Part shown: positions 1,087-18,116 of the stretch, one piece after another
Numbering within the stretch: the stretch's first letter is position 1
Layout: every line of letters starts with the position of its first letter
DNA from: Collinsella sp.
GTDB lineage: Bacteria; Actinomycetota; Coriobacteriia; Coriobacteriales; Coriobacteriaceae
NCBI GenBank assembly: GCA_052281595.1
Contig: DAWBRY010000004.1
Span: forward strand, 67,854 to 131,853
DNA: 64,000 nucleotides
Direction: 5' to 3'
The notes under the pieces: model-generated
What the model was told of the DNA's origin: nothing
What the model saw: only the letters and a program-made list of their open reading frames with translations
Database searches by the model: none
Program-made: the position numbers and the translations under genes

Positions 1087-2031
1087 ATGGAGCACATCGT
1101 CCTCGAATATGACGAGAGCACGCGCACCGCGCTCGTCGTCGCCACGTCCAACAAACGCGAGCCCGTCCTGAGCGGGCACGCCTCGCCCTACATCGTCGCC
1201 GACGGATACGATTTCGAGTCCCGTTCCTGGGGAGCCGGGCACTACTTCACCGATATCGCCGCGGCCAAGATCGACTACGAGCGCTCGTGCCGCCATTCCT
1301 ATCCTCTAGCGGAGGGCAGGCTGCGCGATGACGAGTTCTGCACGATCCGCTGGTGCCGCGAGGATGTCGCCACCGCGCTCTCCGAATACCTCTCCTACCC
1401 CATCCCCGCCACCAAAAAGAATATCGATGACGTGGTCGGTCAGCTCATGGCGCACGGCAGCTTCCAGGACCGCTCCATCGAGGACGGCTGGGAGACCATC
1501 AGCGCCATCATCGACGAGGATGCGCTCGACCTTGGTCTCTCGACAAAACAGGGCGTGGACTTCTACAGGGATGCCTTCGGGCACTGGAACTCCACCGAGG
1601 CCATCGTCTGGCCGAGCAGCGAGGGTGACGCCGCGTTCGTCATGGCGGTACCCGCCGACAGCGAGGACGGCGACCTTGCTGTCTACAAGATCGATGCCTG
1701 CCTCATCGGGGACGACGAGATCACCATCGACGATATCGAGCGACTGGGCGGCAAACGCGAGCTGTGCGTGTACAAGCACGGCTTCGACGGCATCGAGGCC
1801 ATCCGCAACTTCGCCAACCGCGTCGCGGTCGATAGGTTCGATGAGCGTTTCGGGGTCAACAACCTGTACGGCGAGTTGCCCGATCTCGCCCCGACGCTGC
1901 GCAAGGTGACCGAGGGTGCCCGCACGGCCGTGCAGCAGCCCCGCGACCCGCAGGCCATCGCCGCGGCCGCGCTGTCGGCCGCCGAGGGCGGCGCGAAGAC
2001 CGCCGTCGAGCACGTCGGCAACAAGCACTGA
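1087..2031 (+). CDS. Array cargo protein, family A. Has an N-terminal 'HIVLEYDE…PYIVADGYD…W…DI..AKI.YE…EGRL.DDEF…RW.R.D…YPIPATKxNID' domain and the conserved C-terminal tail.
   Basis: RBS AAGGAG 7 nt upstream of ATG 1087. N-terminal domain shared with ORFs 2091, 2717 and 3732. Tail …AAAALSAAEGGAKTAVEHVGNKH. Confidence 0.7.
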   Translation: MEHIVLEYDESTRTALVVATSNKREPVLSGHASPYIVADGYDFESRSWGAGHYFTDIAAAKIDYERSCRHSYPLAEGRLRDDEFCTIRWCREDVATALSEYLSYPIPATKKNIDDVVGQLMAHGSFQDRSIEDGWETISAIIDEDALDLGLSTKQGVDFYRDAFGHWNSTEAIVWPSSEGDAAFVMAVPADSEDGDLAVYKIDACLIGDDEITIDDIERLGGKRELCVYKHGFDGIEAIRNFANRVAVDRFDERFGVNNLYGELPDLAPTLRKVTEGARTAVQQPRDPQAIAAAALSAAEGGAKTAVEHVGNKH

Positions 2032-2090
2032 GTTCACTTTGCCGCGGCGGGCGGTTCCTGCCGCGGCGCTTTTCGTTTGGGAGTTTCAAC

Positions 2091-2675
2091 ATGGATGGAA
2101 CCATCGATTTCATCGTCCTCGAGCACGACGACGTCGCCGGGTGCGCCCTCATCGCCGGTGCCGTCGACGGGGTCGTGCCTGCCATCGACGGGCACAACAC
2201 GCCCTACATCGTCGCCATGGGATACGACCATCCGACCCGCAACTGGGAGGACTGCACGCTGTTCGACGACATCGTGAAGGCGAAACTCGCCTACGAGGGA
2301 TTGCGCGGGCGGGAATACCCGCTTGACGTGGCCATGCGCAGGGACGATTCCGCCACGTTGAATGCCCGCGCGCTCACCGATGCGGAGCTCGCAATCGAAA
2401 TCGAGAAGGCGGGCGCCGCGATGGTCGAGCATGTCGATGCCCATATGGCGCATGTCCACGGCCTCGGCGGCAGCGAGGACGACAGCGCCGCATACTACGC
2501 CGCCCGGAAAAGGCACGCGGACCTGAGGCTCGAGAAGGACCGCAGGCTCCACGCATCGATAGATCTCGGACAGAGGGAAGGTCCACGCGAGCCGCAAGCC
2601 ATGGCCGCAGCAGCCGCCAAGGCCGCGCTGAAACGCGACGGGGTCGAGCTCGGACGAAGCGGCAAGAAACAATAG
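2091..2675 (+). CDS. Array cargo protein, family A. Short form: N-terminal domain plus tail only.
   Basis: MDGTIDFIVLEHDD…PYIVAMGYDHPTRNWEDCTLFDDIVKAKLAYE. The tail is …AAAAAKAALKRDGVELGRSGKKQ. Confidence 0.65.
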   Translation: MDGTIDFIVLEHDDVAGCALIAGAVDGVVPAIDGHNTPYIVAMGYDHPTRNWEDCTLFDDIVKAKLAYEGLRGREYPLDVAMRRDDSATLNARALTDAELAIEIEKAGAAMVEHVDAHMAHVHGLGGSEDDSAAYYAARKRHADLRLEKDRRLHASIDLGQREGPREPQAMAAAAAKAALKRDGVELGRSGKKQ

Positions 2676-2716
2676 GACCGCCACACCGCCCGCGGCAATA
2701 TGATTGGAGTATCGAA

Positions 2717-3682
2717 ATGGAGACCGTCCCGCATGTCGTCCTAGAGTATGGCAAATGGAGCGATTGCGCGCTGGTCGCGCTGACCGACGACGCCCACTCG
2801 GCAGTGCGCGACGGCACCGACATGCCCTATCTCGTTACGAGCGGCTACCACCGCGGATCGCGCACCTGGGCCAGGGCAACACCGTTCGGCGACATCACGC
2901 GCGCCAAGGTCGTCTTCGAGCACCGTGTCGGCCGCGACTACGCCCCCAACGAAGGCAGGCTCCACGACGACGAGGTCATCGCCTGCCGCTGGCGCCGTGG
3001 CGATATCGCCGGGGTCCTGGAGGAGTCGCTTGACTATCCCATCCCCGCGACGAAGGAGAACATCGATACCGCTATCGGGCAGATCGCGCATGTGCAGGAC
3101 CGCCTCATCGAGGATGGATGGAGGGAGATCGTCGATTCCATCCGCGAGGAACGTCTCGACCTCGGTCTCGGCAGCTCCCAGGCGGATAACTTCTACAGGG
3201 GCGTCTACGACGTGACCGCGCACCATAATTCGATGTTCTGGCCGTCGGGCGACGGCAGCGCGGTGCATGTGTCCCATTGCCGCCTGGGAGACGGCCCCTC
3301 GTTCGGGCTCACCGTCCGAACGATCCCGGCCGCGGCCATCGGCAACGAAACCGTCACCTTCGAGAAGATCGACCGATTGGGCGGGAAAATCGAGCTTTGC
3401 GTGGATAGCATCGATCAGGACATCGAGAAGGTCCGCGCCTTCGCCAGCTCATCGCCCGCCGTCCGCGCCTTCGTCGAACCCCTTTGCGCCTATATCCCGG
3501 CACCGAGCGATTCGGTCGGGGAGCAAAAGCGCGACATCTCGCCCTACCTGCGGCAGACCGCGCGGCGCTGCCAGCGCATCTCGCACCCGATCGACCCGCC
3601 AGAGACGGCATCGGCGGCGGCGAGCGCCGCATTCGGCGGCGCGGCGGCCCTGCCGGCACATCGCGGGTATAAGCACCAATAA
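2717..3682 (+). CDS. Array cargo protein, family A.
   Basis: METVPHVVLEYGKW…PYLVTSGYHRGSRTW…YPIPATKENIDTAIGQIAH. The tail is …ASAAASAAFGGAAALPAHRGYKHQ. Confidence 0.7.
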   Translation: METVPHVVLEYGKWSDCALVALTDDAHSAVRDGTDMPYLVTSGYHRGSRTWARATPFGDITRAKVVFEHRVGRDYAPNEGRLHDDEVIACRWRRGDIAGVLEESLDYPIPATKENIDTAIGQIAHVQDRLIEDGWREIVDSIREERLDLGLGSSQADNFYRGVYDVTAHHNSMFWPSGDGSAVHVSHCRLGDGPSFGLTVRTIPAAAIGNETVTFEKIDRLGGKIELCVDSIDQDIEKVRAFASSSPAVRAFVEPLCAYIPAPSDSVGEQKRDISPYLRQTARRCQRISHPIDPPETASAAASAAFGGAAALPAHRGYKHQ

Positions 3683-3731: not shown

Positions 3732-4700
3732 ATGAACGACAAGCTGGACCATTTCGTGCTCGAATACGACGATGCGAGCGGTAACGCGCTGCTCGCGATG
3801 ACCGAGGGCGACGGCAGCCTCATCGCGGACGGCGCGGGCCTTCCGTATGCCTTGGCCCGCGGCTACGACGCGAATGCACGCACCTGGGAGTCGATCGAGC
3901 CCTTCGACGACGTGACGCGCGCCAAACTCCACTACGAGAAGGCCTGCGGACGCGAGTACGTGCCCACCGGCGGCAAGCTCTACGATGACGAGTTCATCAC
4001 GCTCCGGTGGCGGCGTCAGGACATCGCCGACTCGCTCGAGTCCGATTTCGGTCACTTCGGCGTGCCCATCCCCGCGACCGATGAGAATATCGAGCGCGCG
4101 TTGGATCAGCTCGGTAACCACATCGACGATGCGATCTACGAGGCGGGTTGGGACGTTATCCACGACCGCCTCGATGTCCGCTCGTTTGACCTGGGGGTCG
4201 GACACAGCAAACAAGCCAAGGAGTTCTACGAGCAGGTCTTCGAGTGCGACGGCGACTTCTATCCCACCGTCAACGTCTGGCCCGCGGTCGACGGCAGCGG
4301 TGTGCACGTCTCCGTCTGCCCCGTCACTTTCGCAGAGCGCGACCTGGCCGTCTACAAGGTCGACGCCGGCAAGATCGGCGATGGACCCATCACGATCCCC
4401 GACCTCGATGACATCGGTACGCGCGAGGTCCATGTCGACGATTTCACCGAGAAGCCCGAGGAGGTGCGCCTCTTCCTGCGTACGGACGGCGACGTGTACC
4501 TGTTCGGGTCCAGCCTGGGCAAGTCGCTCGCCGTCGAGGATGCGGACGAGGAGGATATCGCCTACGCCCTGCGCGAGGTGCGCACCTACTGCAAGGACGC
4601 TACCGAGAAGCGCGACCCGCAGCTCATCTGCGCCAAGGCCCAAGCCGCCGCGGCCAAATCGGCCACGGCCGAGGGCGATGCCGGCGGCAAGAAGCTCTAG
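3732..4700 (+). CDS. Array cargo protein, family A.
   Basis: MNDKLDHFVLEYDD…PYALARGYDANARTW…VPIPATDENIERALDQLGNH. The tail is …AKAQAAAAKSATAEGDAGGKKL. Confidence 0.7.
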   Translation: MNDKLDHFVLEYDDASGNALLAMTEGDGSLIADGAGLPYALARGYDANARTWESIEPFDDVTRAKLHYEKACGREYVPTGGKLYDDEFITLRWRRQDIADSLESDFGHFGVPIPATDENIERALDQLGNHIDDAIYEAGWDVIHDRLDVRSFDLGVGHSKQAKEFYEQVFECDGDFYPTVNVWPAVDGSGVHVSVCPVTFAERDLAVYKVDAGKIGDGPITIPDLDDIGTREVHVDDFTEKPEEVRLFLRTDGDVYLFGSSLGKSLAVEDADEEDIAYALREVRTYCKDATEKRDPQLICAKAQAAAAKSATAEGDAGGKKL

Positions 4701-4706
4701 CGCGCC

Positions 4707-6323
4707 ATGGCCACCCCGACCGTCCGAACGGTAAACGCGCAAAACCAAAACCATCTGGTCCATGCCGCCTCGAACGAGGCGGGATGGCGACGCTATCTCG
4801 AGACGCTTTCCAGGCACACGGGATGCGCCAACGCCTTCTACAACCTGTCCGCGATGAACTGTGCGGGGCTCGCCGCATCCGATTGGCACGAATCCCGCGA
4901 GATCCTGCCCATCGCCACATGGAAGTCCCTCTTCCCCGGCGCGGACATCAAGCCCGCCGACGGGTGCACGGGCGTCTACTGCGTCAAGTCCAGGCCGCGC
5001 GGCTCGGGCGGCGGGCTGTTCTATGTCGACGAGCTGTTCCCGCCCGCGCTTCTCGTGGGACTGCCTCCCACGATGCTCAGGGGCGCGGCCCGCGTTCTCG
5101 ACCTCTCGGTCGATATCGCGGCGGCGTCATGGAGCGATGCCGAGGCCGGGCTGTACCGTATAGTCAACGTCGCCGATATGGACAGCGACACCGACGCGGC
5201 CCCGGAGGCTGAGCGCGTGCCGGTCGCATGGGTCGACCTCGATCAGAACACCCGCTTCGTCATCGAGGCGCACTTCCGCGCCCAGGGTCCCGGGTGCGCC
5301 AGCCCCGTGCTTCCGCCCGACGACGTGAAGGGCAAGGCCTCCTCGCTCAAGATGTACGTCAACGAGATCGTGAAGACCGCGGCGCCCCTCATCAAGCAGA
5401 TGCGCAACGGCTACCGCGCGGCCTTCGAGAGGCACCGCCGCGACGTCATCCCCGAAAGCGGCCCAGATAGGGATAACGGCCCCGATGCCGCCGTCGGCGG
5501 CGCCGGGGCGAAGGCGGGGGACGTGCAGGAACCCCACCCCGACGAAGGCGGCGGCCGGCCCGCACCGGTGGAAGCCAAGGAAGACCGCGGCGGCCCGGGC
5601 GTCTATGTGGGCAACCTCGCGCGGGAGCCCATCGAGAGGGCCATGAGGGCGATCGGCAGACACTCCAGGGCGGATGGCGATCGGGTGGATATGGAGACCG
5701 CGGCCTCCCCCTCTTCGGAAACCGCCGGGGATGCCGGCGCTATCGGCCGACACTTCGCGCGGAAGGGCGAAACCGTTGACTCCCCCGTGGCCGGCGACCA
5801 GGTCGGGAGCCGTAAGGGGACGGATGTCGAGACGGTTTCCCGCCCGGAGGCCCCTCCCGTGCCGTTGCGGGCCGCAGGGACCGACGATGGAGGCCCCGAC
5901 GTGAAATCAGGTCGGGAAACAGTCGGAGATACAGGCGGGGCCGTACCGGCCAGAGAGGTCGGGCGGCCCGCAGAGTCGCGCACAGAGGCCCGTGAGCGCC
6001 GACGGGAGCGCCTGGGGCGACACGGACGGCCGTCCGAGCGCGGTGCGGACGATGGCGGAGAGGTCGATACCATGCGCCCGCATGGGCGGCGCTACCGCCG
6101 CATGGATGGCGAGGACGCGGACGGCAACGGTCCCGAGCTCCATGCGATGCGCCGGCGGCGCGCCGGCGAGGCCAAGCCCGCGCCCGAGGCGCCGCCCGAG
6201 AAGTACTATCCGCACGGCCGCCCGCCGCGGGAGACCGCGGGGCACGCGAAGAGCGCCGCGGCCCGGACCGCGAAGGACCGCGGAAAGAAGAAGAAACCGC
6301 CGACGGGCAAGGGCTCGTCGTAA
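4707..6323 (+). CDS. Hypothetical protein with a long disordered Arg/Gly/Asp-rich C-terminal half ending in KKKKPPTGKGSS.
   Basis: 538-aa ORF. The N-terminal ~250 aa look globular. The C-terminal half is low-complexity and basic. Confidence 0.45.
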   Translation: MATPTVRTVNAQNQNHLVHAASNEAGWRRYLETLSRHTGCANAFYNLSAMNCAGLAASDWHESREILPIATWKSLFPGADIKPADGCTGVYCVKSRPRGSGGGLFYVDELFPPALLVGLPPTMLRGAARVLDLSVDIAAASWSDAEAGLYRIVNVADMDSDTDAAPEAERVPVAWVDLDQNTRFVIEAHFRAQGPGCASPVLPPDDVKGKASSLKMYVNEIVKTAAPLIKQMRNGYRAAFERHRRDVIPESGPDRDNGPDAAVGGAGAKAGDVQEPHPDEGGGRPAPVEAKEDRGGPGVYVGNLAREPIERAMRAIGRHSRADGDRVDMETAASPSSETAGDAGAIGRHFARKGETVDSPVAGDQVGSRKGTDVETVSRPEAPPVPLRAAGTDDGGPDVKSGRETVGDTGGAVPAREVGRPAESRTEARERRRERLGRHGRPSERGADDGGEVDTMRPHGRRYRRMDGEDADGNGPELHAMRRRRAGEAKPAPEAPPEKYYPHGRPPRETAGHAKSAAARTAKDRGKKKKPPTGKGSS

Positions 6324-6337: not shown

Positions 6338-6751
6338 ATGGTTGAAAGACTCGAGGCGGCGGCCGAGGCCGGCGCCGAATACTACATGGTGACGGTCTCC
6401 GAGTCCGTCACCTTCAGCTATCCCGCGCTCGCCACGGACGCCGAGGCCGCCCGCGAGAAGGTCGCCGCGCTCATCGAGGCGGGACGCGTCCGCGCTCCGC
6501 TCGACCTGGTCGGGGCGCCGTGCCGCCGCGAGGGAATCGAGGTCGTGGATGCCGTGGAGTCCGAGGACCTGAGCTGTAGGCAGGTCTGCGCCCAGACGCT
6601 CATGCCGGGCGAGGCCGAACGGCTCGTCGACGACGTCGAGGCCGGAAAGCTCTACGAGAAGACGCCTCCGCAGATGGCGCATGCCGCCAAGTCGATCCTC
6701 AAGAAGACCGGCTCGGGCAAGCTGACGCCGACCAAGCGGCAGAGGAAGTAA
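6338..6751 (+). CDS. Small hypothetical protein with a tail variant (…AAKSILKKTGSGKLTPTKRQRK).
   Basis: RBS TAAGGAGA upstream of ATG 6338. Followed by hairpin ggggttcccgttcgggaacc at ~6755. Confidence 0.5.
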   Translation: MVERLEAAAEAGAEYYMVTVSESVTFSYPALATDAEAAREKVAALIEAGRVRAPLDLVGAPCRREGIEVVDAVESEDLSCRQVCAQTLMPGEAERLVDDVEAGKLYEKTPPQMAHAAKSILKKTGSGKLTPTKRQRK

Positions 6752-6859: not shown

Positions 6860-8562
6860 ATGGATGAGCACGAAGAGAATTTCAAGGATATTTTCAGATA
6901 TACCGATGTGGAGTACACGCCCGACGGCTATACGGACGTGTACCGCTGGGACGATTTCCTCGTGATCGCGGGCGACCACGTCTACAGCGCCATGGATACC
7001 ATCGATTCGGTTTCCCCCGGCGGCGAGTACGAGGGTTCGACCCGCAATATGCCTACACCTGCGAGATCGTCGGGTGCGGCGATCTGTTCGACGGCTGCGC
7101 GCTGTTCCGTCCGGTGTCCCACGACGGGGAGGACTATACCCAAATCGCCTTCCTGCGCAGCGACATCGACGATTCCACCGGGGAGTATACCGAACGTTTC
7201 GAGGCCGGGTCGTTCGATATGCCCGCTGCCGATGCCTTGCGTTTCGACCTCGCCGTCGATCTTATGGATTATTTCAGCGGCAGGACGTTCGAGGGCGAGC
7301 CCGGCGTGAGCCGCGGTCTCGAACCGCGCGAGGCCGTCGCCGCCGTGGAGGGAGCCACCGGCTGCGACCTCAATTTCTTCGAAGACTTTTGGCTCGGCTC
7401 TCCCGGCGAGATAGTGGAGAGCGTCCACGTCGGTCCCTATACGAAGCAAAGCCTTCTCGACTTCTCGTATTATGCCAAGGAGCTGTCGCGCAGATACGGG
7501 TTCGCCGATAGCGATATCCTCGAAATCGCCCGCCACCTGCCTGAGGAATGCCCCGACCGCTTCGCGGCGGTAAAGGCCTACCTCGATTGCGAGTACGTGC
7601 CGGACGGCGATGCGCCCGACGAGAAGACCTACCGCTGGGGCGACTTCCTCGAGATTGCCGGCGGGGACGCCCGCTACGCGGCCATGCTCGTCGACAGGAC
7701 CGCGGCGGGCGAGTCCGAAGAGGGCCTTCACCCCGAGACGCTTGTCGACCAGGACATCCGCGACGGCGAGGCCTTCATGCTCGCCGGGCGGCCCATCGCC
7801 CCGGAGGACGCCTACGACCTGCCCGGAACCGTCCACGGACTCTATAAGGAGCTCGCGGACAACGTCGACCGCTCCGGCATGCTCTTCCGCGACTGGCGCG
7901 GCTTTGCCGCCGGCACCGATGCGGACGATGTGCTGCGCGCGATCGAGGCCGCGTTCGGCGAGACCGAGTACAGCCGCGCGGGCACCGTGCTCGGCGCCTA
8001 TGCCGACGACACGTTCATGTCGCCTCTTCATGTTGCGCAGGATGCCCCGCGCGACGTCACGCCGCTCACGCCCTGGGAAGACGAGGACGGGGTGGCGTTC
8101 CTGTCGCGCACCCTTGATGCCGATGCGGGCGCGCCCGTCCCCTGCCTGTGGTACTGCATGCGCGACGGGGAGCAGGGCTTCGAGGTCGGCGGCGTCAAGC
8201 TCGACTGCTCGAAAATCGGCTTCGACGAGGTCTCCGCGGCGGCGGCCTCCAACGGCATCGACAGCGTCCTCGCCTATCTCGGGGAATCCCCCCGCGGCCT
8301 TGAACCGCTGTGCGATATCGCCGTGCGCCGTGTCGATGCCGGGATGCCCGATACGGTCAGACACTTCGGCAGCCAGGACGAGGCCATGGCGATGCTCGGC
8401 GCGATAACGGGATGCAGGGTCCAGGCCTACGGCATCGACACGCTCACCTACCGCGCCTCGCTCGGCAACGCCGCGGCGGCGAAGCTCGCCGCGGGGGCGC
8501 TCGCGATGAACGATCGCCTCAGCGGGCGCGGTGACGCGGTCGAGGCCGGGCGCCGTCTCTAG
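6860..8562 (+). pseudogene. Frameshifted cargo gene. An N-terminal segment (6860-~7035, frame 2) continues in frame 1 to 8562, and there is an internal domain duplication.
   Basis: Frame 2 reads …DIFRYTDVEYTPDGYTDVYRWDDFLVIAGDHVYSAMDTIDSVSPGGEYEG. Frame 1 then reads FDPQYAYTCEIVGCGDLFDG… continuously to 8562. The segment KAYLDCEYVPDGDAPDEKTYRWGDFLEIAGGDARYAAMLVDRT in the downstream part repeats the N-terminal motif. There is a single ±1 shift near 7031-7040. Confidence 0.45.
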
Positions 8563-8772: not shown

Positions 8773-9708
8773 ATGGATCTCTTCATGCCCGCGGAACGCG
8801 TCCTCTACGACCGGGCCTACTACCTCTCCGATGAGGCGGAGAGAGACTACGCCTTCGAGGTCGCCGAGGAGCACGGGATCGACGTGGGCGAAGTGCTGTA
8901 CTCCGACGAGCTCATGAAGGAGGTCCGCGATGCGCTCGACAGGGACATCGACCTCTATCTCGACGACGAGATCGCCAACTTCGATTCCATGCTCCGCGAG
9001 CTGAAGCGCGGCGAGAACCCGGAGCACCCGGCTGAGATCTCCGTGGTCGCCATGGGGTCGGTCGGGCGCTGGGACGGTCCCTCCCGCGGCCTCGTCGCGG
9101 CCAACTCGCTGCGCGACCTCATCGACGGGAAGGGCAGCGCGGACGCCCTCGTGGATTGCCGGATCGACCGACTCGTCGACACGAACGGCACGTTCAGCAT
9201 CGAGGCGTCCCACCATGACGGCACCGCCTACCTGGACGTGCGGCTCATCTCCGGGGTATCGTTCGATGGCAAGGGGTTCAGACTCGGAGGCGAGCTCTAT
9301 GCTCCCGGCAAGATGGACCTAGATGATTTCCATATCCTCCTCGGCAACCTCTACGATGCGCCCGGTGTCGGGCCGTGCTCGCTGCCGCATTTCGCGGAGC
9401 GCGCCTACGGCGCGGCGCAGCAGTCGTACCGCTTCGGGGAGACTGTGTTCGATATCTACTGTGAAACCGGCGGCACAGACAGGCCCTATAAGGTCATGGT
9501 CTCGGCGGGAGAGACTGTCGGCAAGGATGCGGGAACCCGTTTCGCCTCCGTCGAAGAGGCGAAAGCGTGGTGCTATCGGTACTCCATGCGCGAGCTCGCC
9601 GACAAGGAGAAGAAGCCCGTCCCGGGCGAGGCCGCCTCGGCCGCGAAGAAGGCCGCCGGGTGTTCCGGCGGGGACGGCGCCGGGGATGCCGGCGCGATCA
9701 AGCTGTAA
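8773..9708 (+). CDS. Array cargo protein with the conserved C-terminal tail.
   Basis: 311-aa ORF. The tail is …ASAAKKAAGCSGGDGAGDAGAIKL. Confidence 0.65.
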   Translation: MDLFMPAERVLYDRAYYLSDEAERDYAFEVAEEHGIDVGEVLYSDELMKEVRDALDRDIDLYLDDEIANFDSMLRELKRGENPEHPAEISVVAMGSVGRWDGPSRGLVAANSLRDLIDGKGSADALVDCRIDRLVDTNGTFSIEASHHDGTAYLDVRLISGVSFDGKGFRLGGELYAPGKMDLDDFHILLGNLYDAPGVGPCSLPHFAERAYGAAQQSYRFGETVFDIYCETGGTDRPYKVMVSAGETVGKDAGTRFASVEEAKAWCYRYSMRELADKEKKPVPGEAASAAKKAAGCSGGDGAGDAGAIKL

Positions 9709-9731: not shown

Positions 9732-10850
9732 ATGGCCGAGAAATACGAGCTCGACAGGTGGGCGGCGGTCGTCTGCAACGGCTTCACCGCCGTCAACGTG
9801 ATGTCTTCCGGCAACGTCGAGGAGTTGGGCTGGGACTATACCGAAATGGAGCTCGACCCCACCGGGACCTGCGGGCTCTTCGACGGCATGCTGCTCGACT
9901 GGGACGACGACACGCCCGCGGAGCGCCGCGACCATGAGGCGTACTTCCCCGACGCGTTCACGGTGGGAGCGCGCATCCTGGCCGACGACTGGGACCACGA
10001 GCTCGGCAACGACGAGGTGCGTTCGCGCTGTTTTGCCATCATCGAGGACGCTGATCAGTTCACCGACCACGACACCGCCCGCGACTGGCTCTGCGAGAGC
10101 ACGATGGCGGACTTTTCCGAGGTCGAGGCGAGGACGTTCTTCCAGAACCTTACGCTCATGGACTCCGAGGAGATCGCGAAGCTGGACGGGCGTCCGATCA
10201 TCCCGTCCGCAGGAGCCGATGAGTGCCGCGCGGCGGTGCTCGCCTTCAACGAGAGGATGGTCCCGCGCCGCCGCGAACTCGGGCTCGGCGACACGGCCGT
10301 GGTCGGCAAGACAAAGAAGTCGGAGGCAACGTCGAAGGTCGTCCCTATGAAAAAAGAGCAGACGGTCCACGGGCTCGGTAGGGTCGATTTCTCCGGCCTC
10401 GGCTACGGTTGGGGGACGAATTATCCCGACTCGCTTTCCGTCGATGCGATCGGCATCAACCCCCCGTCGGGCGAGCGGTACGTCATCCTGAACTTCTCCC
10501 CCATCACGCATGCCCCCGATGTGGACGGCAGGAAGCTCTTCTGCCATGAGACGACCATCGGGTATGACCTCAACGCCGATTCCTGGTCCGGCGCCACCAT
10601 CGGACCGGACTTCTGGGCCCTCGACGGCAAGGAGGCCCGTGAGTTCGCGGAGAAGATCGGGCTCGACCGCCTGGCGGCGCGCGCGTGCGTCAGGCTCGGC
10701 ATCGAAGCGCCGGGGCTCACGGGCCGCGAAGCGCTCCCGATCCCCAAGGGCGTGAATGTCGCACCCCAACCCAGCGCGCAGGCCGAGGCCGCGAAGGCCG
10801 CGGCGACCAAGATGGTGTCCGGCGAGACCGGCGGCGGGAAGCATATCTAG
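9732..10850 (+). CDS. Array cargo protein with the conserved C-terminal tail.
   Basis: 372 aa. RBS GGATACGGAC…ATG. The tail is …AEAAKAAATKMVSGETGGGKHI. Confidence 0.65.
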   Translation: MAEKYELDRWAAVVCNGFTAVNVMSSGNVEELGWDYTEMELDPTGTCGLFDGMLLDWDDDTPAERRDHEAYFPDAFTVGARILADDWDHELGNDEVRSRCFAIIEDADQFTDHDTARDWLCESTMADFSEVEARTFFQNLTLMDSEEIAKLDGRPIIPSAGADECRAAVLAFNERMVPRRRELGLGDTAVVGKTKKSEATSKVVPMKKEQTVHGLGRVDFSGLGYGWGTNYPDSLSVDAIGINPPSGERYVILNFSPITHAPDVDGRKLFCHETTIGYDLNADSWSGATIGPDFWALDGKEAREFAEKIGLDRLAARACVRLGIEAPGLTGREALPIPKGVNVAPQPSAQAEAAKAAATKMVSGETGGGKHI

Positions 10851-10966
10851 GGTTTACTTTACCGGTTGCAGCCCTTCCCATTCGGGAAGGGCTGTTTTCG
10901 TGCCGGGGTGTTGTGGGTAGCATCTTCTCTGATTCTGACCGGCTTTCGTTTTGGAGCTGATGATCT

Positions 10967-11788
10967 GTGGACGATGAGAAGTTCGACCTCAACTCGAGGA
11001 TCTGGGTTTGGTTCAATAGCGTGCTCTCCTATGACAACATCATCGCGCACGATTTCCTCAATGAGATCGACGGCTGCGCCACGTTCGCAGACGTCATCAT
11101 CGGCCTCGCCGATCGGTGCTCCCTTTCCGATTTCCTCGGCGACACGCTCATCGGTTCCAGCTCGCTCCTCTCCAAGATCGCCGACCTGTGCGATGTCGAC
11201 CTGGATACCGCGCTCGGCCTCTGGGAATATGCGAGCGGCGAGGATATCGACCAGTTTGACAAGGAAGGCATCCTGCATATGATTGACGCCGCGAAGAAGG
11301 CCGAAGGGATTGAACCGTATGTATCCCAGGCCGGGCCAAATGGCGGTGTGGACGATGGCGAGGACCTGCGTGCAGGCGGACCGGTTTCCGAGGGCGACCC
11401 GTGGCGCGACGGCATGGTCGCACAGGTCGCTGGGCTCATGGAGCAGGTCGTTGACCTGGACGCCAAGGCAGCCGCCGGCGCCGATACCGTGCTTGCCGAG
11501 TTGTTCGAGCCCCTGGCGAACAATTCCACCGATGCCGCAATCGAACTCTTCGGGGTCTATTCGAGGTCTGACGCAAGCGGACGCTCGGCTATCGCCGAGG
11601 TTTTCCACGCCCTGACCGGCGAGACCTTCGATTCGTTCCTCATGGAGGCCTCGCGGACGTGCGAGGAGACGCTTGAGGCTTATCGGGGCAACAGCTTGCC
11701 CGGCCCTGATGCAATGGCCGCGGCGGCTAAGAAGGCGGCCGGGGCTAAGGTTTCGGCTGGTGTGGATGGCGGCGGGAAGCATATCTAG
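10967..11788 (+). CDS. Array cargo protein (GTG start) with the conserved C-terminal tail.
   Basis: Preceded by the intergenic cassette (hairpin, gggtagcatc, ttggagctg). The tail is …AAAAKKAAGAKVSAGVDGGGKHI. Its 3' ~48 nt are identical to the 3' end of ORF 11819. Confidence 0.6.
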   Translation: MDDEKFDLNSRIWVWFNSVLSYDNIIAHDFLNEIDGCATFADVIIGLADRCSLSDFLGDTLIGSSSLLSKIADLCDVDLDTALGLWEYASGEDIDQFDKEGILHMIDAAKKAEGIEPYVSQAGPNGGVDDGEDLRAGGPVSEGDPWRDGMVAQVAGLMEQVVDLDAKAAAGADTVLAELFEPLANNSTDAAIELFGVYSRSDASGRSAIAEVFHALTGETFDSFLMEASRTCEETLEAYRGNSLPGPDAMAAAAKKAAGAKVSAGVDGGGKHI

Positions 11789-11818: not shown

Positions 11819-13222
11819 TTGATTGGATGGTTCATCATGGACAGCCTCGTTGACGACAACTTCTCCGAGATCAGAAAAACCTTCACCGATCCCCTGTATA
11901 ACGCCATGGGTCTCCATGTGGACATGGGGGCTTCTTTTCACGATTACGGCACCCGCGACGATTACGGTATCGGTTGCTGTGCGACGCTTGACGGCGTGAC
12001 GCATTACGCGAAGGCCTGGCCCATCGAGGACCATGATAGCCGGTGGGGTGCCTGCATGGGCTCCTTTACGTTCGATGAGAGCCTTGCGGGAAACGGCGTC
12101 GACTACGTCAGCCCCGACTCACTCGCCAAGATCATGGGCGATTACGGTTACCACGACTCGCGATCTTTCCTGGACTGCAATCTCGACGTTTGGAGCGACG
12201 AGCTTGTCGGTATTCTCGGGTACGAGGCGTTCGGAAGCAGCCAATCCGAAGCCCTCGTGCTGTCCCCACTTGCCGATAAGGAATCCGTGTTGCAACTCTT
12301 CTATACCTTCTCGGAGAAGGCCGACGGCCTGATCAGTGACGAACTGTTCAACACCCTATATTGGGAAATGGAAGCCGAGGAACGCTTTGCCCATGCAAGG
12401 CCCATCGAGGCAGTCGATATCGATTTCGATAGGGCCCGCGACATCGCATCGAGTTGCCTGCATCGTCAAATCGAGCTTAAAGACGATATATCCTTCCGCC
12501 TTGCCCTGGATATCCTTCCCAAACTCAACTGGGATGGACCTTCCATCGCCATCGATGCGCTTAACTATCTCGCAGATACGCAGGAATTCGGTATCGAAGC
12601 CCTGAGAAGCCATGCAACCGAGCTCTTCGGCTCCTGTCAGGCCTCTGTCGCCTTGGACCAGGCGGGCTACATCATCTATTCCTACAGCGAGCCCGATGCC
12701 GTCACCAAGATGGATGATATCTTCTATCCATCAATCTATTCGTTGCCAGACAGCGGTGATTTGATCGGCTCTTGCATCGACGCCCTGTACGACCCTTATA
12801 TTCCCGAGGTCGAGGAGGCTATGAAAGATGTGCGTGAACGCAGGAAGAACCCCATGGCGCGCTATGGCTCTACGCCACTCGACGCGGTCAATGTCACGGT
12901 AACCCCCGCTTTGATTTTCTTCAAGAACGATCCGTCTGTTTCCCAGCGCGTGTATTTCTGCGATAAGTGCTCATCAGACCTCAATATCGGCGAAAAGATC
13001 TTCTCCTGCGGATATACCGCCGATGAGTTGCGCGGGATGATCGGAAAGAAGACCGACGAGAACTTCGTCGTCGTAGCCGTCGATGATCCATTTAAGGTGA
13101 GGGCCACCTATCTGAACCTCACCCAGAAGATACCCAGTCCAGCAGAGATTGCCGCGTCGGCAAAGAAAGCTGCCGGGGCTAAGGTTTCGGCTGGTGTGGA
13201 TGGCGGCGGGAAGCGTATCTAG
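11819..13222 (+). CDS. Array cargo protein, mosaic. It shares the 'VDIDF…SIAIDA.N.L…LEA.RSHATELF..CQ' domain with ORF 13349, and carries the conserved tail.
   Basis: 467-aa ORF. The tail is …AASAKKAAGAKVSAGVDGGGKRI. Confidence 0.6.
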   Translation: MIGWFIMDSLVDDNFSEIRKTFTDPLYNAMGLHVDMGASFHDYGTRDDYGIGCCATLDGVTHYAKAWPIEDHDSRWGACMGSFTFDESLAGNGVDYVSPDSLAKIMGDYGYHDSRSFLDCNLDVWSDELVGILGYEAFGSSQSEALVLSPLADKESVLQLFYTFSEKADGLISDELFNTLYWEMEAEERFAHARPIEAVDIDFDRARDIASSCLHRQIELKDDISFRLALDILPKLNWDGPSIAIDALNYLADTQEFGIEALRSHATELFGSCQASVALDQAGYIIYSYSEPDAVTKMDDIFYPSIYSLPDSGDLIGSCIDALYDPYIPEVEEAMKDVRERRKNPMARYGSTPLDAVNVTVTPALIFFKNDPSVSQRVYFCDKCSSDLNIGEKIFSCGYTADELRGMIGKKTDENFVVVAVDDPFKVRATYLNLTQKIPSPAEIAASAKKAAGAKVSAGVDGGGKRI

Positions 13223-13348
13223 AGCTGTTTGTTCTCAATGTCGATTGATGGCAGCCCTTTCCTTTTGGGAAGGGCCGTTTTCGTTGCCGGGCAGGGCGGG
13301 TAGCATCTTCTGTGTATCTGGCTGACTTGTTTTTGGAGCTGATGGTTT

Positions 13349-14242
13349 ATGGCGGCGAAACAATACGAACTCGGTTCGAATGTCCTCGATTGGTATAGGG
13401 ATTTCTGCCCGGGGAACAGCTTCCAGGTGGTGATTCGTCCCGATATCACGTTCGCAGACGTCGTCGTGGGCATGGCGAACGGTGTCGATTTGAACAACCT
13501 TATCGGTTCCGATAGCGAGATCTTCGGCAACATCGTGGTCGCGAAATTGGCCGAGATCACCGGAGAGAGCTACGAGACCGTTTCAAATGTCTGGCATGAG
13601 GCGCCGATGAATAGCGATTACATCGGCGAGGACGAGCGGCGCCTCATTGAGGCCGCCAAGCTCGTGATCGAACCCAGATCTAGGCGAATTACCACTGTCG
13701 ATATCGATTTCGGCAAGGCCTTCAGCATCGCAAATCACGCTATGCTGAACGAGATCATGCCATCCTTTGACGACCCTGCTCTCTACGGTATCGCTGAGAG
13801 AGTCCTACCAAATCTCGAGTGGCGCACCGATTCTATTGCTATCGATGCCATCAATGAGCTCTGTTGCGATCGCTACGCCGAGCACTATGACCTCGAGGCC
13901 GTTCGGAGCCATGCCACCGAACTGTTCGCAGCCTGCCAGGTCCAGTTGGCGTTCATACAGGCGGACCTCGTTTTTCAAGCGCTCGACTGGACGATTCCGG
14001 CGACGGATAGGGTTCGTTTCGGATCCGTCTATACCTCGGATCCGTATTCACGTCGTTACATCTCGACTTGTTGCCTTGGTGCATTTAGCCACCCTCGTTT
14101 TACCGTCGCCAGAGAGGCCGTTGCCGATATCGAGAAGCGAAGCAATGCCAAGAACAGCCCAACTAACATAGTTGCGGCGGCCAAGAAGGCGGCCGGCGCC
14201 GACGTGTCGGCCGATGGGGCCGGCAGCGGCAAGCATATCTAG
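13349..14242 (+). CDS. Array cargo protein, mosaic. Its N-terminus resembles ORFs 10967 and 14370, and its middle resembles ORF 11819. It carries the conserved tail.
   Basis: RBS GGAGCTG 9 nt upstream. The tail is …AAAKKAAGADVSADGAGSGKHI, with diverged nucleotides but conserved amino acids. Confidence 0.65.
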   Translation: MAAKQYELGSNVLDWYRDFCPGNSFQVVIRPDITFADVVVGMANGVDLNNLIGSDSEIFGNIVVAKLAEITGESYETVSNVWHEAPMNSDYIGEDERRLIEAAKLVIEPRSRRITTVDIDFGKAFSIANHAMLNEIMPSFDDPALYGIAERVLPNLEWRTDSIAIDAINELCCDRYAEHYDLEAVRSHATELFAACQVQLAFIQADLVFQALDWTIPATDRVRFGSVYTSDPYSRRYISTCCLGAFSHPRFTVAREAVADIEKRSNAKNSPTNIVAAAKKAAGADVSADGAGSGKHI

Positions 14243-14369
14243 CGCCTTCTTAGTTTTGCCGCGGTCAGATGGCGGCCCTTCCCGTTCGGGAAGGGCCGTT
14301 CTCGTTAATGGGCGATGCGGGTAGCATCTTCGATGTATCTGGCCGACCCTCTTTATTGGAGCTGGCGAA

Positions 14370-15590
14370 ATGAGCAAGAAGCATTTCAATTTCAAGTCTA
14401 GTATCCGCGATTGGTATATCCGGGCCTTTCCATCCGATGAGCTCGGTTACAGGATCAACCCGCTCGCCACCTTTGCCGGCGCCGTGAAATGCATGGCGGA
14501 CGGAGGCGACATCTATAAGTATCTCGGCGTCGGGGACTCCCTGGTGCGCGAGAACGTATTCTCCAAGATCGCCGCCATCACGGGCGTGGATTACGATGCC
14601 GTATACGGCCTTTGGCTTCATCATGACGAAGACGAGTGCAGCAGACTGGTCTTCCTCGGCGACCATCCGGACTGCGCCGTAGATCGCGACTGGCGGGAGC
14701 AGTTCGATGAGGTGGTCTCCCCTTCCGAGCAAGTGCGCTATGACGAGATGCTTGCAGCCGAAGAGCAGCGCAAGGCCGAGACGTTCGATTCGTTCATGGA
14801 GGTCAACGAGACTCCCATGGACGAGGTGCGAAGCGCCGGGATCGCGATGGTTCTCATGCAGGGCATCGTTTTCGCGGAGATCGCCAAGAAGATCGATGGG
14901 CCAAGCGAGGAGCTGAACGAACGCATCGCGACCTTCAACCACGACCTCAAGCGCCTCTACAACGAACCGCTCCACAAGAAGGTGGAACAAATCGAGAACC
15001 AGGTCGGAAAGCTGGAGGAGAAGGCGGCCATATACGACGAGATGCGCTATACCGCCGAGCATACCGATCCGGCGGATATCCGAATCGCAGAGGGCAGCAC
15101 CAGCATGACCGGCGCATTGATGGCCGCCGCGATGGCGAGCTACGACCTGTCATGCGGTCTTATCGACGATGAGCACATCGGACGATACAGCGACGTCATC
15201 ACCGCCCTCGAGGAGCGCATGGGGGTCGGTGCCGGCGGACTCTCCGTCCAGACCGAGGCGGGCGAGCTCATCGCCAACGCCAAGGAGGACGGCATCAGCG
15301 TCGGCATCAACATCCCCGGCGGCAAATGCGCGGATATCGCCTTCGTCGATGCGGACCCGGGCGCCGACGACCTCTACCCGACACCCGTTCGCGCCTTCAC
15401 CTACAACGGCCGCGACGAGGAGCCCGATCACCGCACCGACGTGCATCTCGACGGGGACATGGTGCTCGATGGACAGATGACTGCCGAGACCCCCGCGCAT
15501 GTACCCGCCGATATCACCGCGGCTGCCAAGGAGGCCGCCGCCAAGAGCGTCAAGCCCGACACCGTCGGAACCGACGGCATCAAGCACTAG
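14370..15590 (+). CDS. Array cargo protein, mosaic. Its C-terminal domain 'AGEL.A…GISV.IN.P.GK…DDYPTPV..FTY.G.D.EP.HRTDVHLDGD' is shared with the N-terminus of ORF 17313. It carries the conserved tail.
   Basis: 406 aa. The tail is …TAAAKEAAAKSVKPDTVGTDGIKH. Confidence 0.65.
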   Translation: MSKKHFNFKSSIRDWYIRAFPSDELGYRINPLATFAGAVKCMADGGDIYKYLGVGDSLVRENVFSKIAAITGVDYDAVYGLWLHHDEDECSRLVFLGDHPDCAVDRDWREQFDEVVSPSEQVRYDEMLAAEEQRKAETFDSFMEVNETPMDEVRSAGIAMVLMQGIVFAEIAKKIDGPSEELNERIATFNHDLKRLYNEPLHKKVEQIENQVGKLEEKAAIYDEMRYTAEHTDPADIRIAEGSTSMTGALMAAAMASYDLSCGLIDDEHIGRYSDVITALEERMGVGAGGLSVQTEAGELIANAKEDGISVGINIPGGKCADIAFVDADPGADDLYPTPVRAFTYNGRDEEPDHRTDVHLDGDMVLDGQMTAETPAHVPADITAAAKEAAAKSVKPDTVGTDGIKH

Positions 15591-15605
15591 GCGGGAGGCA
15601 TAGCC

Positions 15606-16556
15606 ATGGAAGAGACCTATCAGCTCATCGAGGGGTCGCCGACGCTGCGCGACCTGGACGCGGAGAACGGCTTCCTCTGGTGCCCGTTCGGGCACTCGGG
15701 GCGCCAGAACGAGCCGGGTATCCTGATCAGCCGCCTCGATGACGGCAGCTACGACGTGAGGCTCGGGACCGGGTTCGACAGCCCCGAGCGCTTCGCGACC
15801 GGGGACCCCGATTGGTCCTGGATGGACTTGTCCGTGGCCTCCACCGTGGAGCTCACCTTCGCGGACGACATGGCGCTCAACGACTGGATCGCGAGCGAGA
15901 CGACCGCCACCGGCGCCGCATGGGCTCGATGCTTCAACCCCTATTGCGGTCCTGACGAGAAGACATTGAACACCTCTGAAATCATCGATACGCTTAGGCG
16001 CTTCGAGAGCCCTTCGTATATCGTGCGCGGGCCCATCGAGGATATCGAGAGCCTACCGGTCGGGTACTACTGGTGCCCGGATGCACTCGACCCCGACCCG
16101 TCCTATAACGGCTACCTGCTGAACGTGTTCGCCGGCTTTGACGGCCGTGGGCTCCCTGGCAAGTTCTTCGAGCTCTTCGGCGGGGTCACGCTGAACGACG
16201 TGCCCTCCTTCGGGTTCGACGACGGCTGGGACGGCTCGTGCCTCAACCGCCTCGACTGGTTCGAGGACGCTGCGGGCATGGACGCCGACGGGCTCTCCGC
16301 CGGGCTCGTGGCGAACGACGCCGAATCCATCAAGGCCCTCATCGGGAACTGCCCCGCCTGGATCGAGTGCTTCCCCTCGTACAGCGAGAAGGCCGCCAAG
16401 GGCGTCGACGATGCGGTCCAGGCCGTGAAGGCGTATCGATTGGAAGGCAAAAGGGTACACAGGGAGGTAATCCCCGGGTATCTCTATGAGACTGCGAAGG
16501 CCGCCGCGGCCAAGACCGCCGGCGGGGCCGATGGCGGCACCGGGCCCCATATCTAG
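15606..16556 (+). CDS. Array cargo protein with the conserved C-terminal tail.
   Basis: 316 aa. The tail is …AKAAAAKTAGGADGGTGPHI. Confidence 0.6.
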   Translation: MEETYQLIEGSPTLRDLDAENGFLWCPFGHSGRQNEPGILISRLDDGSYDVRLGTGFDSPERFATGDPDWSWMDLSVASTVELTFADDMALNDWIASETTATGAAWARCFNPYCGPDEKTLNTSEIIDTLRRFESPSYIVRGPIEDIESLPVGYYWCPDALDPDPSYNGYLLNVFAGFDGRGLPGKFFELFGGVTLNDVPSFGFDDGWDGSCLNRLDWFEDAAGMDADGLSAGLVANDAESIKALIGNCPAWIECFPSYSEKAAKGVDDAVQAVKAYRLEGKRVHREVIPGYLYETAKAAAAKTAGGADGGTGPHI

Positions 16557-16569
16557 GAAGGCGATCTGC

Positions 16570-17313
16570 ATGGACTACTTCTCCCGTAAACCTGACTTCC
16601 CCACCTTCGAGGATATCTATATCGCCCGCGCGCAGGGAGCCATCGAGCTCGAGCGGCGCGGCGACGAGGTCGCCTGCCGCTTCGGCCCGGACGGCCCCGC
16701 CTTCATGCTCCCCCAGGGCGCAACCCGGGGCGATATCATCCGGGGCTGCCTCGCCTGCGACGGCATCGTCGAGGTGTTGAAGGGCGATCCGGGGATCCGT
16801 GTCGCGTGTGCCGGGTGGCTGGACTCGTACTTCACCGAGGTCGCCGATCGGGCCCCCGTCGGGGAGACCTGCGGCGCCGACTGCCTTTTCGCATGCCATG
16901 TCGATATCGACGGCATCTACGCGGAGCGCACCGGGGACCCAGACGGGCTTCGCGCCTACTGCGACCCGATGGGGGTCGGCTGGAACTACGGCCCGATCTA
17001 CTACTTCCCGCGCGAGTCCATCGAGCAGGTGGTCGGGCAGCTGTGCGAGGACGGGGACGATTTCCCCGTCCTGTTTGACGGGGAGCGCGTGATCGAGGCT
17101 TTCGACGGCACGCCCGTTCACATGTCGGTGCCCGTCGAGGTCGACGGCGAGAAGGTGTGGACCTGCGGCTACGACTTCTGCTGGTGCGAGACCGTCGCGC
17201 CCGATTTCAGCCGCGCGCGGGGGCACTTCCCCGACGCGACCGTGGCCGCCTGGGCTGCCGCGCGGAACGTGAATCAATCTGATGGCGATTTGGGCCTCAA
17301 GGAGCGTATGTGA
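16570..17313 (+). CDS. Array member lacking the tail. It is Cys-rich (CxxC pairs).
   Basis: RBS GGAAGG before ATG 16570. Translationally coupled to the next gene (…ATGTGATG). It ends …DLGLKERM with no tail. Confidence 0.5.
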   Translation: MDYFSRKPDFPTFEDIYIARAQGAIELERRGDEVACRFGPDGPAFMLPQGATRGDIIRGCLACDGIVEVLKGDPGIRVACAGWLDSYFTEVADRAPVGETCGADCLFACHVDIDGIYAERTGDPDGLRAYCDPMGVGWNYGPIYYFPRESIEQVVGQLCEDGDDFPVLFDGERVIEAFDGTPVHMSVPVEVDGEKVWTCGYDFCWCETVAPDFSRARGHFPDATVAAWAAARNVNQSDGDLGLKERM

Positions 17314-18116
17314 TGAACGAGTCCATTTCCGTAATGACCGATGCCGGCGAGCTTGTCGCCACGCCGTTCGCAGGCGGCATCAGCGTCGATATCAACCTGC
17401 CCGACGGCAAGGGCAGCGGCCAGCTTGCGTTCATCGAAGCCGCACCGGAAGGGCTTCGCGATGACTACCCGACGCCTGTCCACGTGTTCACGTATGACGG
17501 GCTAGATTCGGAGCCGGTCCATCGCACGGACGTGCATCTCGACGGGGATGCCATGACGCTCGATCCCGTGAAGGGCGCGGCGGCACGCAATGGCGCCGAT
17601 ACGGGATATAGGCAGCTGGATTCCGATTTTGTCAACGCTTCCAACAGTTGGGATGAGGTATACGGGTTCATCAAACGTTCCGACCCCAATTCCACGGGTA
17701 TGCCCGCGAGTTTCGACTATGCCCTGCTCGCACTCGATTCCAACGGATGGCATTTCGGTGAATCGAATGCGAGCGCCTTTGATATCCCCGCCAAGGACCT
17801 CGATTTCTTCCTGGGTATCTTCTACTGCTCAAGCATTTCGGAATTTGCTGCGTATGCTTCTGAGTGCAACGAGCCCGATTTCCAGGAATGGCTCTGCTCG
17901 ATGTATCTCCGCGACCAGGTGGAAGACCGTCTCCGCCACGAAATATCTTGCAATTGCATACAATCGACCGTTGACGCCTTCAAACTGCTTTCCGATAAGA
18001 TCGGTTTCGAGTTCGAGCCTGAAAACAATCCCGCAAATGTCGCCAAGGCCGCCAGTGCGGCGGCAGTGCGTTCGGTCGGTTTCGGCTTGAGCGAGGCCGA
18101 GGGCATCAAACACTAG
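17313..18116 (+). CDS. Array cargo protein. Its N-terminal domain is shared with the C-terminus of ORF 14370. It carries the conserved tail.
   Basis: RBS AAGGAGCG 8 nt upstream. The tail is …AKAASAAAVRSVGFGLSEAEGIKH. Confidence 0.6.
   Translation: MNESISVMTDAGELVATPFAGGISVDINLPDGKGSGQLAFIEAAPEGLRDDYPTPVHVFTYDGLDSEPVHRTDVHLDGDAMTLDPVKGAAARNGADTGYRQLDSDFVNASNSWDEVYGFIKRSDPNSTGMPASFDYALLALDSNGWHFGESNASAFDIPAKDLDFFLGIFYCSSISEFAAYASECNEPDFQEWLCSMYLRDQVEDRLRHEISCNCIQSTVDAFKLLSDKIGFEFEPENNPANVAKAASAAAVRSVGFGLSEAEGIKH

Follow-up and report, generated by a model that had tools for sequence, protein, structure and literature searches.

A tail-bearing mosaic gene array on a conjugative element of gut Eggerthellaceae as candidate unbundled anti-defence cargo

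A 64,000-nt stretch of a Collinsella contig (DAWBRY010000004.1, positions 67,854 to 131,853; hereafter the window) contains 19 genes of a tandem array of at least 24 (about 25) that belongs to a conjugative element found in gut Eggerthellaceae (Gordonibacter, Eggerthella and relatives). Each array protein has 137-567 amino acids (aa) and one to three modules, and all 19 that are encoded in the window end with a tail of about 30 aa, roughly P-x3-AAAAKKAAG-x10-GGGKHI. We tentatively regard the array as 'unbundled' polyvalent cargo for anti-defence or establishment, and infer that the tail would direct these proteins, as a transfer signal, to the type IV secretion system (T4SS) of the element itself, a reading to which we give slightly less than an even chance. 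A more specific claim, which we would sooner doubt than back, is that the tail is a T4SS translocation signal not described before, belonging to a Gram-positive (actinobacterial) conjugative system and marking about 25 proteins, a DarB-like anti-restriction enzyme and a DNA-binding protein among them, for injection into the recipient before or together with the DNA; most of the modules would have new folds and new anti-defence or establishment functions.

RESULTS

A common C-terminal tail

The 19 tail-bearing genes of the plus strand in the window, named G01 to G19, are packed with intergenic gaps of 0-210 nt (Table 1); related loci that were fetched for comparison carry L-numbers. An earlier note on this DNA had recognized the array and placed it at 1087-18116; the array is real, and it actually spans 12-20258 and continues upstream of the window, with 3-4 further small tail genes and a giant DarB-like gene. 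Altogether, the tail is carried by the 19 window genes, by five upstream genes (the giant helicase included) and by one satellite gene. A proline comes first, then an Ala-rich stretch with the consensus AAAAKKAAG; some 10 variable residues lead on to a Gly-rich turn, and the end is basic-hydrophobic (for example GGGKHI, GIKH or GKKL). The net charge of the last 30 residues runs from -1 to +9, mostly 0 to +3, and most tails finish with K/R-H/K-hydrophobic. The bodies are acidic whereas the tails are neutral to basic; in particular, 17 of the 19 array proteins have an isoelectric point (pI) of 4.1-5.6, and the acidic ones contain 15-22% Asp plus Glu.

A hidden Markov model (HMM) of the tail, run over the six-frame open reading frames of the window and the fetched loci, found no carrier outside the array except the satellite at 58680-59732 (E = 1.3e-3), which is likely a stray member of the array family. 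Moreover, the tail profile had 41 matches among 1.84 billion representative proteins, 40 of which end within 2 residues of the protein's C-terminus, and this search returned the element's own proteins only. In a search of plasmid records, 1,350 match the helicase core of the giant protein, and none of them reaches the C-terminal end, where the tail would be. Literature searches turned up no account of either the tail or the array.

The tail's residues are kept while its codons vary synonymously, so selection acts on the tail peptide. The tail DNA of G11 and G12 is almost identical, which suggests gene conversion between them.

Modules in differing combinations

The earlier note had described five similarities among the array proteins, and all of them are significant when the proteins are compared by BLASTP all-versus-all and, minus their last 32 residues, by Smith-Waterman alignment against shuffles (BLASTP E from 1e-5 to 1e-56, shuffle z of 7-71). 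The strongest unite G02, G04 and G05, which are pairwise 34-42% identical (E = 1e-46 to 7e-56, z = 56-71). The N-terminal domain attributed to the genes at 1087, 2091, 2717 and 3732 is indeed shared, with G03 resembling the other three across its first 85-93 residues or so and nowhere else (E = 1e-12 to 1e-16, z = 21-23); the part of the motif from GRL.DDE through YPIPAT.ENID is missing in G03, and this gene is not the domain plus tail only, as had been claimed, since about 75 more residues lie in between.

The other relationships were recovered as described. The VDIDF domain (module Y) connects G12 with G13 at 35% identity (E = 5.6e-19, z = 27). The AGEL domain (module X) stands C-terminal in G14 and N-terminal in G17 at 60% identity (E = 1.8e-22, z = 44), and the likeness extends to the DNA (15243-15470 versus 17328-17564, 72% identity). 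The N-terminal 82-117 residues or so of G11, G13 and G14 (module N1) are related with E values of 1e-10, 1e-6 and 2.6e-5 and z scores of 18, 13 and 7, and the duplication inside the frameshifted gene G08 joins residues from about 2-59 to residues from about 228-292 (Smith-Waterman score 109, versus 38 +/- 6 in shuffles). The comparison returned exactly these relationships: no further pair of tail-trimmed array proteins rose above z = 4.4. The similarities are therefore specific, and low complexity does not account for them. Beyond the window, residues 7-176 of G10 are related to the upstream tail gene U2 (30% identity, E = 4.5e-7).

Cassette turnover and the origin of the mosaic

Exact copies of G14 and G02 occur in 1,291 and 1,793 blocks, respectively, of a public assembly collection, which makes the element very common in human-gut metagenomes. 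Genomes that carry it include Gordonibacter sp. 28C, G. pamelaeae CCUG 55131, Eggerthella sp. AM16-19 and several Collinsella metagenome-assembled genomes. The array is highly conserved across many samples of this lineage, and the shuffling is thus older and between lineages, not an ongoing hypervariation.

Related copies of the array differ by whole cassettes and by their combinations of modules, in agreement with the earlier description of a mosaic mobile-element cargo. The block G11-G13 is absent from L007, where a clean crossover within a hairpin that recurs between array genes marks the junction, and likewise from L022 and L023; L008 lacks the stretch from G08 to the middle of G18. Further, G12, G13 and G17 have a G+C content of 55-57%, versus 61-73% in the other 16 genes (about 65% for the window), and their G+C content at third codon positions (0.68-0.69) is lower than that of neighbours with 65-70% G+C. 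These three genes and the G11-G13 block look like cassettes gained from another source.

The diverged copy L023 offers two more comparisons. In the slot of G03 it has two genes of about 315-320 aa, each of which matches one half of G03 (73% and 66% identity); the 75 or so extra residues of G03 are 66% identical to the C-terminus of the 315-aa gene. In the slot of G17 it has module X plus tail alone (131 aa), and module X is thus seen alone with a tail, N-terminally and C-terminally. Overall, the mosaic arose by duplication (G02/G04/G05 and the G08 repeat) and by recombination at a repeated sequence, the hairpin-promoter module between genes; fusions by in-frame deletion in which a tail is retained contributed to it, and the tail-coding DNA was probably another recombination site.

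Metagenomic homologs include dozens of chimeras, such as a G13 body with module X or G10 with module X. These were considered as proof of shuffling and rejected, because all are collinear with the gene order; we read them as deletion fusions and not as free shuffling, and they show that tail-keeping fusions arise easily.

The frameshift in G08 is a 1-nt deletion in a run of G at about 7034-7036 (GGG in the window versus GGGG in a diverged relative). At least 8 independent assemblies share it, and L001, L009 and L023 have an intact gene (565-603 aa), so that the deletion is a real lineage marker or a pseudogenization rather than a sequencing error.

A repeated intergenic hairpin module

Several array genes are separated by a module whose hairpin has a stem of about 8 bp and a 4-nt loop; a T-rich run and a promoter-like motif come after it (one copy is itemized in Table 1). 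The hairpin core TTCCCNTTCGGGAA is found at 978-991, 6756-6769, 8653-8666, 10875-10888, 14279-14292 and 18137-18150, and a variant follows G12 at 13258-13271. There are seven core matches in the window, six of them in the array, versus 0.07 expected by chance; only 7 of the 19 array genes are followed by a hairpin. It also precedes the first array gene, the giant gene and the satellite, the last of these with a hairpin at 59835-59848 and a TAGCATCTT motif, and copies were located at L010 832, L016 8750 and L016 13165. Judged from its sequence, the module is probably a terminator followed by a promoter.

An exact copy of the GGGTAGCATC motif stands on the minus strand at 33492-33501, upstream of the nikA-relaxase operon, and hints that the array cassettes and this operon might share a promoter type. 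Inverted repeats lie near this copy, at 33027-33057 and 33597-33629.

Protein families, folds and selection

No array protein matches a housekeeping family, and the array is encoded on a conjugative element, which bears out the earlier view that these are not metabolic genes. Searches of the 20 tail-bearing proteins of the window against Pfam, PHROGs, PADLOC and NCBIfam gave nothing above chance except for G19, which has the only Pfam-A matches, all weak (I-TevI_DNA-bd, NUMOD1 and FYDLN_acid). Sequence and profile searches of the Protein Data Bank (PDB) with the G02 family, modules N1, Y and X, G06, G09 and G18 had no match. The array proteins are soluble, with neither signal peptides nor membrane segments. 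In G19, three repeats of about 59 residues match PDB 8B6E (E = 5.7e-5), whose I-TevI/I-HmuI-type domain has a described fold and DNA binding (PMC10319021). The number of these repeats varies, as L001 encodes a 174-aa version with one repeat fewer (15188-15712).

The ratio of nonsynonymous to synonymous substitution rates (dN/dS) between the window and the diverged array copy L023, whose proteins are 65-85% identical, is 0.18-0.48 (0.40 for G05 at 75% identity). This is moderate purifying selection and indicates real genes that evolve fairly fast. For the chimera P0056, the AlphaFold2 (AF2) model predicts N1 and Y to be helical, with a predicted local distance difference test score (pLDDT) of about 75-95; module X is poorly modelled.

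Table 1. Array genes, the satellite member and one intergenic module in the window
Feature	Coordinates	Strand	Description
G01	12..968	+	318 aa, acidic orphan and tail; no Pfam or PHROG match
G02	1087..2031	+	314 aa; module Z at residues 1-82 (nt 1087-1332), helical domain, alpha/beta domain, tail
G03	2091..2675	+	194 aa; module Z at residues 1-93, about 75 unrelated residues, tail
G04	2717..3682	+	321 aa; full-length paralog of G02 and G05; tail
G05	3732..4700	+	322 aa; full-length paralog of G02 and G04; tail
G06	4707..6323	+	538 aa; structured N-terminal half, long charged disordered-looking region, lysine-rich tail variant; no match in Pfam or PDB searches
G07	6338..6751	+	137 aa; basic tail variant
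G08	6860..8562	+	about 567 aa with the frame repaired; duplication of nt 6863-7036 and 7543-7737; tail
G09	8773..9708	+	311 aa, orphan and tail
G10	9732..10850	+	372 aa and tail
Intergenic module	10863..10966	+	hairpin CCCTTCCCNTTCGGGAAGGG, GTTYTCGT, GGGTAGCATC (fits TANNNT), GGAG before the next start codon
G11	10967..11788	+	273 aa; module N1 at residues 1-86 (nt 10967-11224), unique C-terminal part, tail
G12	11837..13222	+	461 aa; module Y at residues 186-338 (nt 12392-12850), tail; 55% G+C
G13	13349..14242	+	297 aa; module N1 at residues 1-82, module Y at residues 110-266 (nt 13676-14146), tail; 56% G+C
G14	14370..15590	+	406 aa; module N1 at residues 1-82, helical middle, module X at residues 291-367 (nt 15240-15470), tail
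G15	15606..16556	+	316 aa, orphan and tail
G16	16570..17313	+	247 aa, orphan, cysteine-rich (12 Cys), divergent tail
G17	17313..18116	+	267 aa; module X at residues 5-84 (nt 17325-17564), unique domain, tail; 57% G+C
G18	18188..19546	+	about 441-452 aa, orphan and tail
G19	19557..20258	+	233 aa, basic (pI 9.7); three tandem I-TevI/I-HmuI-type helix-turn-helix repeats, tail
Satellite member	58680..59732	-	350 aa, acidic (pI 4.5); tail-like C-terminus ...PASIAAVARKAAASS...PRH; hairpin upstream

The host element and its neighbourhood

The host of the array is a conjugative element. Its MobA/VirD2 relaxase and NikA are encoded within the window. The coupling protein, of the VirD4 type (677 aa; L026 10001-12034), is encoded just past the window's end, with DUF3801 and a 246-aa protein as neighbours; the same region has VirB4-like, VirB6-like and PrgI proteins, a tyrosine integrase and an excisionase-like gene. 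The array is 9-30 kb away from the relaxase gene, on the side of its 3' end, and the stretch upstream of nikA (about 32.5-33.6 kb) falls on the opposite side. Two contigs from independent assemblies, of 131,709 bp (L011, DAWAIP010000001.1) and 131,855 bp (L013, ERZ548770 NODE_25), one of which starts inside the replication region, raise the possibility that the element may exist as a circle of about 132 kb; elsewhere it sits in contigs of 370-530 kb. A search of IMG/VR with the G02 family returned no relatives, which makes a phage origin unlikely; a DNA search of PLSDB with 20 kb of the array found no match, and no capsid genes are present on the element.

The giant protein (about 1,770-2,200 aa) is encoded within the array just upstream of the window and has the same C-terminal tail. 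It matches the PHROG family 'DarB-like antirestriction' (E = 1e-261) as well as DNA-methylase and SNF2-helicase families, and none of the array modules was found inside it. In some loci (L009/L008 769-2753 and L014 12169-13401), the 5' part of the giant gene is interrupted by a minus-strand gene of 410 aa, with a zf-FCS/TRASH-like C-terminus, and by a TnpV-like gene, which leaves a 183-aa N-terminal piece with a tail of its own that was acquired.

Directly after the array, at 20518-23950, are an AbiEi/AbiEii toxin-antitoxin system, a Fic gene and a Y1 transposase of the IS200/IS605 type; L023 has its AbiEii gene in two pieces. Further downstream in the window are an HNH protein, a glycosyltransferase, and the relaxase and NikA. 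Just downstream of the relaxase gene, the minus strand encodes a 337-aa protein (28616-29629; pI 4.05; no Pfam match) that ends in ...DDDDYGEDDSMFADLF, an end that resembles the acidic C-terminal tip of SSB proteins. The remainder of the window includes a PIF1 helicase, a flotillin, replication-type genes, an SSB and a pPIWI-RE defence island at 46575-52852, where the plus strand encodes a 1,233-aa protein with domain Z and a helicase, and the minus strand a pPIWI_RE protein of about 841 aa.

DISCUSSION

Delivery as unbundled cargo

According to the tentatively favoured explanation, the array proteins would be made in the donor, where the coupling protein of the element's own T4SS would recognize the tail, and the tagged proteins would pass into the recipient together with the DNA. 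In the recipient, they would act as separately tagged early effectors for anti-defence or establishment, and the whole array would amount to a polyvalent protein split into separately tagged pieces. At the sequence level, the array proteins do have what T4SS substrates have, a short C-terminal signal common to otherwise unrelated proteins, and delivery would explain why the constant part is C-terminal, as in known T4SS substrates. It also explains why modules recombine freely so long as a tail is kept, and why one tag is found on both a DNA-binding protein and a methylase-helicase. With a tag that is separable from the body, any module that gains a tail becomes deliverable, which would favour cut-and-paste evolution. 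Moreover, delivered proteins explain how the array need not sit in the first-entering DNA; its place on the 3' side of the relaxase gene, away from the likely side of the origin of transfer (oriT), would make the delivery of pre-made proteins likelier than early expression.

Several observations weigh against this explanation. That the tagged proteins are translocated is itself something we infer, and the array directly follows a Tad/Flp pilus locus, so that other machinery may be involved. The element's relaxase and SSB end without a tail; the tail is only weakly basic, and its last 10 residues are often neutral where VirB/D4 signals are rich in Arg; and the literature searches found no published Gram-positive T4SS signal of this form. 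Since the tail profile has no matches elsewhere, the signal is lineage-restricted and has no cross-validation in other systems. Further, no module resembles a known anti-defence protein or fold in the family libraries and PDB searches, and some of the metagenomic chimeras may be assembly artefacts.

The earlier note had read the cut-and-paste architecture as arms-race cargo, either anti-defence or polymorphic effectors. Modular mobile-element cargo is what the array is. The comparison of its modules with anti-restriction, anti-CRISPR and LPD families and with solved folds, by which that reading was to be checked, gave no match; what would speak for an anti-defence role is the array's context, and the polymorphic-toxin version is unlikely, for reasons given below with the question of export.

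Competing explanations

Unlikely, and the best placed of the alternatives, is that the tail is a handle in the donor cell, either a docking peptide by which the proteins bind a shared partner (the DarB-like giant, a scaffold, a protease or a chaperone) or a degron through which their levels are kept low, and that the proteins act inside the element-bearing cell, perhaps as regulators or as modulators of defence. In both AF2 models the Ala-rich tail segment forms a short helix, and a predicted short amphipathic helix of this kind is a typical peptide-docking element. The putative promoter module common to the cassettes suggests co-regulation, the element's own AbiE, Fic and pPIWI-RE systems might need modulation, and the tail-less relaxase would be expected. 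Against such a handle, there is no obvious partner gene, and a tag shared by about 25 unrelated bodies is what one classically sees with a sorting signal. The tail is also found on the DarB-like protein, whose P1 relative acts after delivery with DNA, as is known for the family (PMC5512222).

We give little credence to the idea that the array proteins are effectors or toxins exported against competitors or the host, through the adjacent Tad-like system or another exporter, with the tail as the export signal. Its main attraction is position: immediately before the first tail gene and on the same strand (L014/L016/L018 1-8600) are an S13-like H2TH protein and the Tad/Flp locus, with TadE/G-like, RcpC/CpaB, T2SSE ATPase and T2SSF genes. 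Modular shuffling is typical of effectors, and several export systems use C-terminal signals as a matter of general knowledge, which equally holds that Tad systems are not known to export soluble proteins via C-terminal tags. A Pfam scan found no toxin domains in the array proteins. Polymorphic effectors or toxins fit poorly with a conserved part that is C-terminal and with gaps too small to hold tail-less immunity genes, and no immunity-like genes lie between the array genes. Moreover, a DarB-like helicase/methylase and the DNA-binding G19 make sense only in a cell that contains DNA.

It is very improbable that the array is an ordinary, lineage-specific expansion of orphan paralogs with no shared mechanism, in which the tail is an ancestral remnant. 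No module is functionally annotated and the family is confined to one element lineage, as such an expansion would have it. However, the tail is kept on bodies without detectable similarity, on the helicase of some 2,000 aa and on a satellite gene far from the array, and in 6 of 10 orthologs its dN/dS is no higher than that of the body; together, these require selection on the tail itself.

Least probable of all is that the 3' ends and hairpins are integron-like DNA recombination sites and the peptide tail a mere by-product: the boundary of the variable G11-G13 block falls exactly in the repeated hairpin, the tail DNA of G11 and G12 is nearly identical and G+C content differs among cassettes, but tail residues are kept across synonymous codons, the profile's matches end at protein C-termini, most genes have no hairpin after them, the hairpin looks like a terminator-promoter unit, and no integron-type integrase lies near the array, the sole tyrosine recombinase found being past the far end of the window.

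Significance

Which proteins Gram-positive conjugation systems send to recipients, and how these are recognized, is largely unexplored. A single short, transplantable tail on about 25 otherwise unrelated proteins of a widespread gut element makes the question of delivery directly testable, and the array is a compact source of about 15 protein families without known fold or function, at a place where anti-defence genes are expected. If the tail is indeed a delivery tag, it could serve to bring proteins into Eggerthellaceae, which are genetically hard to manipulate.

Comparison with known systems

Polyvalent proteins, of which the DarB-type methylase-helicase of P1 is one, combine 2-15 conflict-related domains in a single large polypeptide, from a repertoire that includes methylase, SNF2 helicase, MPTase, ArdC-N, ParB-like, PBECR and LPD1-39 domains and others, many of which also occur solo near T4SS genes (Iyer, Burroughs, Anand, de Souza and Aravind 2017, PMC5512222). 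A term search of that article found no feature like the conserved C-terminal tail that each array protein has (PMC5512222). The array resembles the polyvalent proteins in its location on a conjugative element near transfer genes, in modules that occur in many arrangements, and in having a true member among its own genes, the tail-bearing DarB-like methylase and SNF2 helicase of about 2,000 aa. It differs in that its modules are spread over about 24 separate small genes instead of being fused, and in that no small array protein matches a polyvalent domain or LPD family; in both respects, only the giant conforms.

Two other kinds of gene array are more distant. In contrast to polymorphic toxin arrays, the conserved part is C-terminal here, every gene has a tail, and there are neither interleaved tail-less open reading frames nor toxin domains. 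Unlike integron cassettes, the array genes have no attC-like site each and no IntI-type integrase nearby.

Conjugative plasmids are also said to have anti-defence islands in their leading regions, reportedly described by Samuel and Burstein in 2024. The array is similarly a long same-strand run of small genes, most of them without annotation; it too is carried by a conjugative element and is associated with a gene of the anti-restriction type. Unlike those islands, it lies at a distance on the 3' side of the relaxase gene and is not evidently the first to enter, and to our knowledge a common C-terminal tail is not a feature of leading-region islands. Long hairpins resembling single-stranded DNA promoters were not noticed in the array, where no dedicated search for them was made and only short terminator-like hairpins turned up.

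The Bep proteins of Bartonella, with a BID domain and a basic tail, and the X-Tfe proteins of Xanthomonas, with an XVIPCD, are tandem families of T4SS effectors with a common C-terminal signal. Like them, the array is a paralogous, domain-shuffled set with variable N-terminal parts and a common C-terminal part, encoded together with a T4SS and its coupling protein. Unlike them, its tail has about 30 residues and no BID or XVIPCD domain (no Pfam match), its host is a Gram-positive actinobacterium, and its T4SS is a conjugative one and not a dedicated effector system.

Finally, the Dar system of phage P1 and the internal proteins of phage T4 are sets of proteins that are co-delivered with DNA through a shared targeting feature. 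In T4, the sequence that targets proteins to the capsid is N-terminal and is removed by cleavage, unlike the tail of the array. The P1 system is closer, as it delivers several unrelated proteins, DarB among them, to protect DNA by a common targeting mechanism of the kind proposed here for the array, whose vehicle would be a T4SS in place of the capsid of P1 and T4.

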